64,000 nt of DNA from Lytechinus pictus (Eukaryota): assembly GCF_037042905.1 (NCBI RefSeq), contig NC_087245.1:3722001-3786000 (forward strand), given 5' to 3'. A program made the translations under genes and the position numbers. The notes below the pieces were generated by a model. The model did not search any database. It saw only the letters and a program-made list of their open reading frames with translations, and had not been told where the DNA came from. Shown piece by piece: positions 11,201 to 14,200 of the stretch (position 1 is the first letter of the stretch; the number at the start of each line of letters is the position of its first letter).

Positions 11201-14200
11201 TTCAAATTAACCTATTTCCTTAATGGTACATGTAGCTTGATCAAAAGACAGTTATCAGAATATAATTTAGCCTGACACTTGAGTCTATTACAAAAACTAT
11301 GAAAAAAAAACATGTAATCAATTTACTTGTCTCTTGATATTGTTCCTGACTTCTGCTGAGAGCGCTAACCATCTTTGTTGGAGCTGAAGCCGTATATTGG
11401 GATCTTTGGATACAAGTGCATTCTTCAGCTGTAAACCCGCTGCAATGCGAGCGACATGAGCCTTATCGGCATTTGCAAGGATCTCAGAAAGTTGAGTGAG
11501 GAAAAGCGGCTGTACAAGCAAAATAAAACATTATTACTGACACAAAAATTGTAGCCACTGAATTATTTAAATATGTGAGTTTTGTGTATCATTACATGTA
11601 AATGCCTTACAGATCAGAAAAATTAAATTTAAGTGCATGTACAGAATATTATACAAAGCCTAATTACATGCAGCTTGTATTTGTACACAAGCAGAGGGTA
11701 GGATACACCAGCTACTATCATACCAATGTGCATGTATCCAGCATGGCCAGTTCAAGTTAAAACAGATACAATTCATTGCCCTGGCTGGCTACATAATCTA
11801 GGCCTTAAATTTTGTGAATTTTAGGGCAAGGTCAGTTTGGTTTAACATAACTCATATTTTAATAATAAACTATTGTTTTGATAAAAAGCCAGCATGAAAT
11901 GGGACAAAGATTAAATACCTTTCTGATACAGAATAAATGAATTTTATAGAAAGGGATTATTCAGGGAAATTGATAATTTGATAAAGCGGTCAAAAATCCA
12001 TCAAACAAAAGTAATATAACAATAACTACAAATTTGAATAAAAGTTAAATACATGTACATGTACATGTATGTAATTCACTATTGAACCTCTTCCTAAACC
12101 GTCAGAGAGAAAAAAAGGGCAAACTAAAATATTCTCCTCCATACAGTACTACTTTCCCTCATACATACATGTACCTAATTATCATAGTTTTACAAAAGTC
12201 TAGGTTTTTGTAATTAAAAAAAAAAAAATGACCAAGTTGTTACTTACCAAATTTTCCCTGGCTTTCTGTTCTAGAAACCTCTGTGCTGCTTCTAGCTCCG
12301 CTGTGTCTGGATAAGAAAATATAATCACAAGTGTTTATACATTTCATAATTTAAAGATTTGATCATGTCATAAATGGTGGGAAAAAAACATCTAAAAGTG
12401 AATGAAAAGTATATTTTGATTATTAGGTAGGTAAGTATATAGTGATATACTGCAATATCTAATAGTGCTCGACTGTGTAGGAGCTGAGTATAAATAATTT
12501 ATTGGTTGGATTGCTTAACTAAGCTAGTCGTACAGACTGTTTCACCCTAAGGCTCATCAGCGACTCTGATGAGCCTTAGGGTGAAACAGTCTGTACGACT
12601 AGCTTACATGTAGTTAAGCAATCCAACCAATAAATTATTTATATTTTGATTATTATACACCTAATAACTGTTGTACAGTGTGCTGTAGGATTTTCATCCA
12701 AGTGATAAAACAAATCAAATAACCATTTTCCACATTAATGCATGTATTGGACAAACAAAAATGTTCTGTCAAAATATTTGTTTCATAATTTTTCTGTTAG
12801 GGCATCAAATGTTTGACCAATGCTTTGCAGAAATCTGCTCAATTTTGCAGAGTCACATCCACACATGAGTGCATACGTGTATGGGACATCACACAAATGT
12901 TCATTAAAGGTCAAGTCCACCCCAGAAAAATGTTGATTTGAATAAATAGAGAAAAATTAAACTAGCAAAACGCTGAAAATTTTATCAAAATCGGATGTAA
13001 AATAAGAAAGTTACGACATTTTAAATTTTTGCTTATTTTTCAAAAAACAGTGATATGCACAACTAAAGTGAGGCAGTCGATGATGTCCCTAACTCACTAT
13101 TTCTTTTGTTTTTTATTGTTTGAATTATACAATATTTCATTTTTTATAGATTTGACGATAAGGACCAACTTGACTGAATCATATAGTATTAAACAATGCT
13201 CATTCCACATGTTCAGGGAGGAATTAATTGTTGTTTCACTTGGCAATGAGGAGAAAAATAGAATATTTCATATCATAAAATACAAAAGAAATAGTGAGTG
13301 GATGACGTCATCAGTCTCATCATTTTCATACCCACCAGGATGTGCATATAACTGTTTTGTGGAATTAAGCATAACTTTAAGCATAACTTTAAAACTTTCT
13401 TATTTTACATTCGATTTTTATGAAATTTTCAGAGTTATACTTGTGGATTTTTCTCTTTTTATTCAAATCAACTATTTTTTGGGGTGGACTTGTCCTTTAA
13501 GAATATTTTAGTTATTTTCCCACTACAATTTGATTGTTAGAGCATTTGAAGTCAGAGCAATACTTTGCAGTGGACAATTTTAAAATATTTACTAGGCAAG
13601 CCTCCACATTAACTTTTTTTGGGGTGGCCCATTCGGGCCACCAATACTTTCGTAAGTTGTTTTTTTTGGTGGCCCAACATTAAAATTTGGTGGCCCGAAA
13701 AAGTATTTTAAAAATATTGAAATTATAAAAAGCCTTAAACTGTACCGTCAAGAACACTAAAGCTTGTTTATGTTTTCTTCGATCTACACACAGACACAAA
13801 TAGTCTGATCTAGATCTATACATTTACACTTGTTAGCAAACCACATTTCTGGCCATGAGCTCGCTATCACCAGTGTTAAACATTACTTTATTTTTCTGCC
13901 ATTGAAAAAAAAAGAAAAATTACCAGGCCATTTTCAAATCAAGTGGAACGCCTCTGGCAGTCTCGCCTGCATTACGCAATTCGATATAGCAGCAGTGCTT
14001 CCTTTGAAAAACAGCTAATATTAATAATAATTATTCACAGAAGAAAACACTAATAAGATAATAAAATATTATGTCCATTGACCCAAAATGACCTTTGACC
14101 ATGATCATGTGGCCTAAGACATGTGCAAAACAATCATTCATACTTGATTACCCTTATGTCGATGTTTCATGTGCAAGTACCATTAACTTCCTAAGTTATG

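Follow-up and report, generated by a model that had tools for sequence, protein, structure and literature searches.

Here we describe a small insertion in the gene for importin beta-1 (KPNB1), found in a window of 64 kb, which is the whole stretch of DNA that was analysed. KPNB1 lies on the minus strand; its third coding exon starts at 11509 (minus) and matches importin beta residues 34-88 (E 4e-16) and Pfam IBN_N, and exons 1 to 3 splice in frame with GT-AG ends. The insertion therefore lies inside the first coding intron (intron 1, 22357-12307, 10,051 nt), and the preliminary description of this DNA, which had placed it there in the sense orientation, was right as judged by the coding exons. 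KPNB1 is an essential gene. The features of the locus are the following.

22358..22397, minus strand: KPNB1 (importin beta-1) coding exon 1, 40 nt
12248..12306, minus strand: KPNB1 coding exon 2, 59 nt, with its acceptor 103 nt downstream of the insertion
12410..12425, no strand: target-site duplication (TSD) copy 1, 16 bp exact, 12-16 bp by assignment of a 4-nt junction overlap (empty-site contig, record 10 of DNA run X2)
12640..12655, no strand: TSD copy 2, by direct-repeat search; X2 record 10 resumes at 12640
12426..12565, minus strand: 140-nt copy of the element end in the direction of KPNB1 (sense copy), its 5' truncation falling exactly on the 5' border of hammerhead stem I
12426..12488, minus strand: one-sided 63-nt tail, the 3' end of the sense copy, without a mirror in the inverted copy and belonging to a repeat family (repeat comparison and DNA depth)
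12526..12565, minus strand: minimal type I hammerhead motif (core inspection, descriptor and folding)
12561..12565, minus strand: 5-nt unpaired palindrome centre, the 5' strand of stem I, in the sense copy only
12566..12643, plus strand: inverted, head-to-head second copy, beginning at core C3, without stem I, its last 4 nt overlapping TSD copy 2
12607..12612, no strand: 6-nt addition in the right arm only, making the 8-mer palindrome TACATGTA (arm comparison)

The inserted DNA spans 12426-12639 and is flanked by two identical 16-bp copies (12410-12425 and 12640-12655). Because the right arm and TSD copy 2 share 4 nt, which end the former and begin the latter, the true duplication is 12-16 bp; the duplication noted in the preliminary description thus stands, while the 15 bp given for its length gives way to an exact match of 16 bp. 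The near-perfect palindrome of 155 bp that had been reported is real and occupies 12489-12643, with a left arm of 72 nt (12489-12560) and a right arm of 78 nt (12566-12643) that are identical at 72 of 72 shared positions and differ solely by the 6-nt addition. The 8-mer created by that addition is strongly over-represented in the window (22 copies against a mean of 1.37 and a maximum of 6 in 200 shuffles), and no literature on it as a transposon footprint was found among the matches listed. An adjacent, inverted and 5'-truncated copy in head-to-head orientation, the arrangement by which Penelope-like element (PLE) insertions are recognised, is present, as is a one-sided extension, here 63-67 nt long. 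Within the KPNB1 pre-mRNA the inverted copy (12566..12643) is antisense and is transcribed first.

As RNA, the minus strand of 12400-12670 folds at -139.2 kcal/mol (z -19.85), and none of 200 shuffles was as stable; in the predicted fold the core and the arms pair mutually, leaving position 12330 near the acceptor unpaired. Action of ADAR or Dicer on the 72-bp hairpin is plausible. Other fold-back elements lie inside the KPNB1 gene span (8784-10022 and 12904-13500), so long double-stranded RNA is nothing special there. No tRNA gene was found in the 64-kb window.

The empty site and the repeat family

Four of the 24 listed sequencing runs were used (X1, X2, X23 and X24; two DNA and two RNA). 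The best word shares in that list were about 0.2, and no RNA run was ranked in it as a holder of the sequence. In DNA run X2 a 901-nt contig (record 10) follows the window from 11757 to 12409 (record positions 23-662) and then continues directly with 12640-12891 (663-877), which is an exact empty site with a single copy of the repeat, and record 3 of DNA run X1 stops at 12409, consistent with an empty site. The flanks differ from the X1 and X2 contigs by ∼5% substitutions (30 in 649 and 33 in 653), and these runs therefore represent other haplotypes or a close relative; the exact empty site in turn means that the insertion is polymorphic or lineage-specific. If the insertion were as old as the flank divergence, the probability of zero mismatches in 88 paired positions would be ∼0.01-0.016, an age estimate to be read with the caution that palindromes can also be homogenised.

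The inserted sequence is a repeat. Contig depth in the bin 12415-12495 was 5469 (X1) and 4833 (X2) as against 60-105 in the adjoining flanks, so that in both DNA runs the sense unit stands at ∼40-65 times flank depth, a rough measure rather than a copy number. Depth was ∼4500/2700 over the left arm as against 159/23 over the right arm; the latter is near background, which suggests that most family members are without the 6-nt addition. Together, the depth of the sense unit and the empty site show that the insertion is young and not fixed, and that it belongs to a repeat family of which the tail is part. There is no second copy of the 140-nt unit in the 64-kb window. No contig of the filled allele occurs among the matches listed in the runs, and the filled allele accordingly rests on the window assembly.

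This last point bears on the possibility that the assembly is at fault and turned a real solo insertion into a fold-back chimera, since the centre of the palindrome occurs in no contig among the matches listed. However, the arms differ by 6 nt, the TSD is exact at both ends, and removal of the unit gives exactly the X2 empty site, and we find such a chimera scarcely credible. It is also very unlikely that the whole 230-bp palindrome was itself the mobile unit, whether fold-back, MITE-like or retrozyme-like, and was copied as a palindrome. The likeness of the arms at every shared position and the clean placement of the unit within one TSD would agree with such an origin, but the unit is asymmetric, with its tail on one side only, and inverted repeats are therefore not at both termini. 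Where a MITE would have terminal inverted repeats at both ends and a short TSD, here a 63-nt unpaired tail parts the left arm from TSD copy 1 and the TSD is 12-16 bp. The fall in depth from left to right arm and the absence of a centre-spanning joint among the matches listed also speak against a mobile palindrome, both weakly; for the former, records fitting both arms are placed once.

The two RNA runs, which carry another organism label, cover 12496-12576 to depths of 13.9 and 17.7 by reads whose first mate is on the minus strand (plus: 0 and 1.07), whereas reads of KPNB1 exons in the same runs have their first mate on plus. The RNAs derived from the family are therefore antisense to the hammerhead, and they most likely stem from loci other than the KPNB1 insertion, giving no direct information on the KPNB1 allele. 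These runs are thin here, and no back-joint indicative of circular RNA was found for the insertion stretch among the matches listed.

The hammerhead motif and its predicted silence

In the sense copy, the 5-nt palindrome centre (12565-12561) pairs with 12530-12526 to form stem I (5 bp). The core consists of 12560-12554 and 12543-12541, stem II of 3 bp closed by G10.1-U11.1 (12553/12544), and stem III of a self-complementary segment of 9 nt (12540-12532), with a putative cleavage site after GUA, between 12531 and 12530. All conserved core positions are present (C3-U4-G5-A6-N7-G8-A9, G12-A13-A14, A15.1-U16.1 and H17; minus, 12560-12531), and GUA is reported as active in natural hammerheads (PMC1636495, in part; papers so marked are cited for the portion available). 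As the preliminary description had held, the minus strand alone closes a type I hammerhead with the 5-nt loop as stem I, at 5/5 pairs; a hammerhead on the plus strand was rejected, stem I there having 2/5 pairs. Over the two strands of the window together, a type I descriptor gives one match, on minus with its core at 12560. In shuffled windows any match occurred in 5 of 200, and a stem I of at least 5 bp with a palindromic stem III in 0 of 200, a strict criterion that was set after the motif had been seen.

Several features mark this as a minimal and somewhat weakened hammerhead. Where helix II begins, both arms have G-U (12553/12544) in place of the highly conserved G10.1-C11.1, a change that could have arisen by a CpG transition. 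Loop 1 is absent because no stem I beyond 5 bp survives; the copy ends at the edge of the 5-bp stem I, and the contacts between loops 1 and 2 of the canonical extended type I hammerhead are likewise absent. The Rfam hammerhead scan proposed as a check in the preliminary description brought no model to its gathering score, nor did wider scans: the best results in a scan of 81 bp were 14.6 against 56.3 bits (E 1.8) and 11.3 against 48.5 bits (E 5.8), and a scan of 501 bp gave hairpin-driven miRNA matches only, all below the gathering threshold. The word 'complete' used of this hammerhead thus holds for the minimal core and its short stems, and goes too far in that none of the Rfam hammerhead models reaches its gathering score.

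The motif resembles the minimal hammerheads of type I found in PLEs of metazoans (Cervera and De la Pena 2014, PMC4209133, in part) in its intact catalytic core, its 5-bp helix I, its palindromic stem III suited to dimers and the occurrence of close opposite-strand pairs, which in those elements lie ∼100-700 bp apart. It differs from them, as far as the available portion of that paper describes them, in a helix II that is not long, at 3 bp or, counting a U-G wobble, up to 4, in having G10.1-U11.1 in place of G-C with no extra nucleotide between 9 and 10.1, and in an opposite-strand copy that abuts (5-nt spacer) and is without stem I.

Nearest-neighbour energies, which take no account of Mg2+, proteins or tertiary contacts, predict that the motif is sequestered in its own transcript. 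Forcing the hammerhead fold would cost 63.6 kcal/mol above the ensemble in full context and 6.0 kcal/mol above it when the antisense arm is left out, and an isolated monomer is predicted to adopt the fold with a probability of ∼1e-4. The self-complementary 9-nt segment 12540-12532, as palindromic stem III/loop 3, would permit a dimer, and a trans double-hammerhead is calculated at -21.1 kcal/mol as against 2 x -4.3 for the monomers, as expected of a dimer-type motif; a same-strand partner for dimer cleavage is absent from the 64-kb window, where the descriptor finds only the motif itself. The two RNA runs of another organism label, thin over this stretch, hold no pile-up of read starts or ends at the motif.

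The view that the antisense arm, being made first, would sequester the motif in a hairpin is thus supported by folding (by ∼64 kcal/mol in the model). The further step taken in the preliminary description, that sequestration explains why the motif is tolerated in an essential gene, is not supported: long-term tolerance in KPNB1 is not established because the copy is not fixed, an empty site being present in another DNA run, and the lone motif is predicted to be off even in a transcript stripped of the arm (∼6 kcal/mol). Sequestration is not needed to explain tolerance, because the motif has no loop 1, has G-U for G10.1-C11.1, has no same-strand partner and is predicted to be misfolded when the arm is removed. 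Published work also tells against that explanation: a single PLE minimal hammerhead did not cleave in vitro and dimers, too, were weak (PMC4209133, in part), eight of nine predicted Xenopus dimers did not cleave (bioRxiv 10.64898/2026.07.22.740005, in part), and slow intronic hammerheads leave splicing intact whereas the fast HDV ribozyme does not (PMC2995048, in part, reporting Dye 2006 and Fong 2009). The hammerhead is probably silent in the KPNB1 intron. Among the titles and abstract openings judged, none of the literature on antisense or inverted-repeat sequestration of PLE hammerheads was on point.

One may instead suppose that the ribozyme is active and harmful to the KPNB1 pre-mRNA, and that the copy survives only because its inverted arm silences it, which would amount to selection for born-silenced insertions. 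The full set of core nucleotides and the cleavable GUA are there, the arm is transcribed first and would pair the core as the core emerges, reads of family RNA are antisense to the motif in both RNA runs, and introns are depleted of retrozymes once length is normalised (bioRxiv 10.64898/2026.07.22.740005, in part). Against this, the motif is predicted to be off in the arm's absence and carries G10.1-U11.1 instead of the conserved G-C, the only same-strand descriptor match in 64 kb is the motif itself, and the copy is not fixed; moreover, 42-44% of Xenopus retrozyme copies overlap introns (same preprint, in part), and slow intronic hammerheads are no block to splicing (PMC2995048, in part). We regard this reading as a whole as decidedly unlikely.

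An extremely improbable alternative is that the host has domesticated the sequence as an intronic ribozyme or as a regulatory hairpin of KPNB1 (RECK-like), or that it is a small-RNA precursor. The sense orientation 103 nt from the acceptor and the weak, sub-gathering matches to miRNA models would suit such a role, and the conserved intronic hammerheads of amniotes (RECK and others; PMC6155905, in part) are likewise type I, sense and intronic. They are, however, fixed and conserved, whereas the KPNB1 motif is of recent date, has not reached fixation and pairs along its whole length with its antisense copy; instead of conservation at the orthologous intron we find that site empty in X2, with X1 consistent, and the sequence belongs to a repeat family and sits among the other fold-backs of the KPNB1 span.

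A probable Penelope-like insertion unit and its meaning

From these observations we infer, with good confidence, a young, heavily 5'-truncated insertion of a hammerhead-bearing PLE pLTR, or of a non-autonomous derivative moved by a PLE, lying inert within intron 1 of KPNB1. PLE insertion units as published have an adjacent inverted, 5'-truncated copy and a tail of 30-40 bp at one end (PMC8557442, in part), and the Pen families of Adineta vaga have head-to-head junction palindromes with TSDs of 8-10 bp that were read as self-priming (PMC3846280, in part). The preliminary description had proposed that a Penelope-type element inserted here as a fold-back, bringing a type I hammerhead whose stem III is palindromic, and the likeness of the anatomy to these published units argues for this. 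Compared with endonuclease-positive PLE units (Adineta vaga Pen, PMC3846280, and PMC8557442, both in part; PAc, PMC11167929, here in part), the KPNB1 copy is alike in its head-to-head inverted and 5'-truncated copy, one-sided tail, TSD, AT-rich target and uncleaved hammerhead near the 5' junction. It differs in being cut to 140 + 78 nt with no ORF, in its tail (63-67 nt as against 30-40) and in its TSD (up to 16 bp as against 8-10). Unlike PAc, the sense copy is without an open frame from the hammerhead ATG; an intact PLE ORF from that ATG was rejected, as a stop follows after 14 residues in that frame.

Biochemical work on PAc bears on the integration. In purified form the PAc protein nicks DNA that is AT-rich and extends its two strands, starting at two internal RNA sites that bound the tail; its hammerhead is protein-assisted, and insertion does not need hammerhead cleavage but uses uncleaved RNA (PMC11167929). 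Two start sites and an uncleaved RNA fit the two 3' ends 63-67 nt apart at KPNB1 and a motif kept on both sides of the cut site. In the likely course of events, a GIY-YIG endonuclease would have nicked the AT-rich DNA of the intron at two staggered positions, 12-16 bp apart, and one nick would have primed cDNA synthesis at the tail end of the element RNA, with 140 nt copied as far as the 5' border of stem I. For the mirror arm there are two routes: the cDNA may have folded back on itself and joined the target via the 4-nt match, or the other nick may have primed a second cDNA at a site 63-67 nt further in, which was then joined head to head to the first. Repair would have yielded the TSD, and the 6-nt addition is probably of later date. 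Once transcribed into pre-mRNA, the motif would remain uncleaved, with no same-strand stem III partner, loop 1 lost and stem II weak; the earlier-transcribed antisense arm would zip it into the 72-bp hairpin, which would leave with the intron at splicing.

Pattern scans for the motif or the arm gave 0 matches in metagenome, viral and prokaryote collections, where animal repeats are not expected, and no parent PLE was recovered. No GIY-YIG domain occurs in the eight window ORFs scanned besides the KPNB1 exon; the long ORFs scanned are of AP-endonuclease LINE, other RT and integrase types. A literature search on sea urchin Penelope hammerheads found nothing related, and the supplements of the papers cited may hold closer echinoderm cases. 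The repeat also resembles the non-LTR retrozymes of animals (PMC7229834 and bioRxiv 10.64898/2026.07.22.740005, both in part), being a non-coding, low-GC repeat with a type I hammerhead and a long TSD, and solo derivatives of retrozymes are, like the KPNB1 copy, often intronic. In contrast to retrozymes, which are recognised by at least two same-strand tandem units with a hammerhead, the KPNB1 locus has no same-strand tandem, with one descriptor match in the window, and is shorter than a typical monomer. The source may have been either an autonomous pLTR or a retrozyme-like derivative.

The layout is that of the published PLE insertion unit, a known pattern of which the KPNB1 copy is an ordinary new instance. 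As a single locus it matters little beyond being a neat and very small example. Its modest value is that of a clean footprint: the empty site is known, there are two different 3' ends, 4 nt match at the junction and the turn falls exactly on the border of stem I, and this footprint can be compared with the two-start-site biochemistry of PAc. Within an importin-beta intron, the insertion can also readily serve as a marker scored by its presence or absence.

A bolder reading, which we consider unlikely, is that integration in this family as a rule halts and reverses on the 5' border of stem I, that each fold-back is thus born with an off-switch in the form of a perfect antisense copy of its ribozyme, transcribed earlier, and that introns selectively retain sense copies carrying it. 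The turn would then reflect either a template RNA whose start lies at the stem I edge or an arrest of the reverse transcriptase by stem I. Selection for the off-switch cannot be shown from a single locus. Only if intron-sense copies proved to be enriched for inverted arms genome-wide would the locus bear on why PLEs make inverted ends and keep their hammerheads; if this bolder reading were true, the inverted PLE pLTR would be a self-silencing device that widens the genomic space these elements can occupy.

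Sequence signals at the insertion

The hammerhead-bearing, Penelope-like insertion in KPNB1 intron 1 carries a 6-nt addition in its right arm (12607-12612), which generates the 8-mer TACATGTA. This 8-mer occurs 22 times in the whole window, against a mean of 1.37 and a maximum of 6 in 200 shuffles. It takes the form of a TA duplication flanking 4 nt, the pattern expected for a Tc1/mariner-type excision footprint; no paper supporting that reading of TACATGTA was found among the literature matches listed.

A short inverted match between the left junction (12414-12428) and the flank beyond the second copy of the target-site duplication (12655-12668) lengthens the predicted hairpin by 11 pairs in the RNA fold. 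Either the target templated the tail's first 3 nt or their match may be due to chance. Two splice-like signals were also observed. At the tail end of the insertion, 12423-12438 on the plus strand resembles a strong 5′ splice-site consensus, antisense to KPNB1, and its splice-site-like 8-mer occurs three times in the window, counting both strands. In the direction of KPNB1, a CAG that resembles an acceptor and has a weak pyrimidine tract lies directly at the palindrome centre (12566-12590, minus strand); it arises from the inverted arm and is enclosed in the predicted hairpin.

Retrotransposons and other features of the window

Elsewhere in the window the following features were recorded:

28627-32403, minus strand: LINE ORF2, 1258 aa, uninterrupted, with AP endonuclease, RT and zf-RVT domains
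32441-32848: ORF upstream of the LINE ORF2
37277-38986, minus strand: truncated non-LTR retrotransposon open frame, 569 aa, with a partial RT (sub-threshold in Pfam)
48420-52085, minus strand: broken LTR-retrotransposon-like remnant with an integrase zinc-binding domain
32909-34969, plus strand: mucin-like, Ser/Thr-rich open frame, 686 aa
55655-55746 and 60380-60476, plus strand: two matches to the box C/D snoRNA SNORD70, over the Rfam gathering score

The LINE is apparently a young element of L1/Tx1 type. The truncated non-LTR frame adjoins an (ATT)n-type microsatellite, the LTR-like remnant has a helix-hairpin-helix motif in its upstream ORF, and the 686-aa frame has no Pfam match.

Inverted repeats around KPNB1 and RNA reads

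Further inverted repeats accompany the insertion:

12904-13500: fold-back MITE-like repeat, 597 bp, in KPNB1 intron 1, ∼250 bp from the insertion
8784-10022 and 1058-1564: long inverted-repeat elements, inside the span of the KPNB1 gene or close to it

DNA depth over the MITE-like repeat is in the millions, indicating a very high copy number.

In X23 and X24, two RNA runs labelled as another organism, reads over 12496-12576 derived from the repeat family of the insertion were nearly all antisense to the hammerhead. These could be host transcripts containing antisense copies or antisense transcripts of the element itself, of the kind discussed in PMC3846280.

Across 11200-13600, A>G and T>C places were in excess in X23 and X24 (60 and 58 for A>G, 48 and 57 for T>C) over G>A (18 and 18) and C>T (15 and 16), whereas the same classes were balanced in the DNA runs (26/26, 21/20, 23/20, 18/15). 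The excess in these differently labelled RNA runs resembles the outcome of A-to-I editing on dsRNA that derives from repeats, the source of which is probably the high-depth MITE.
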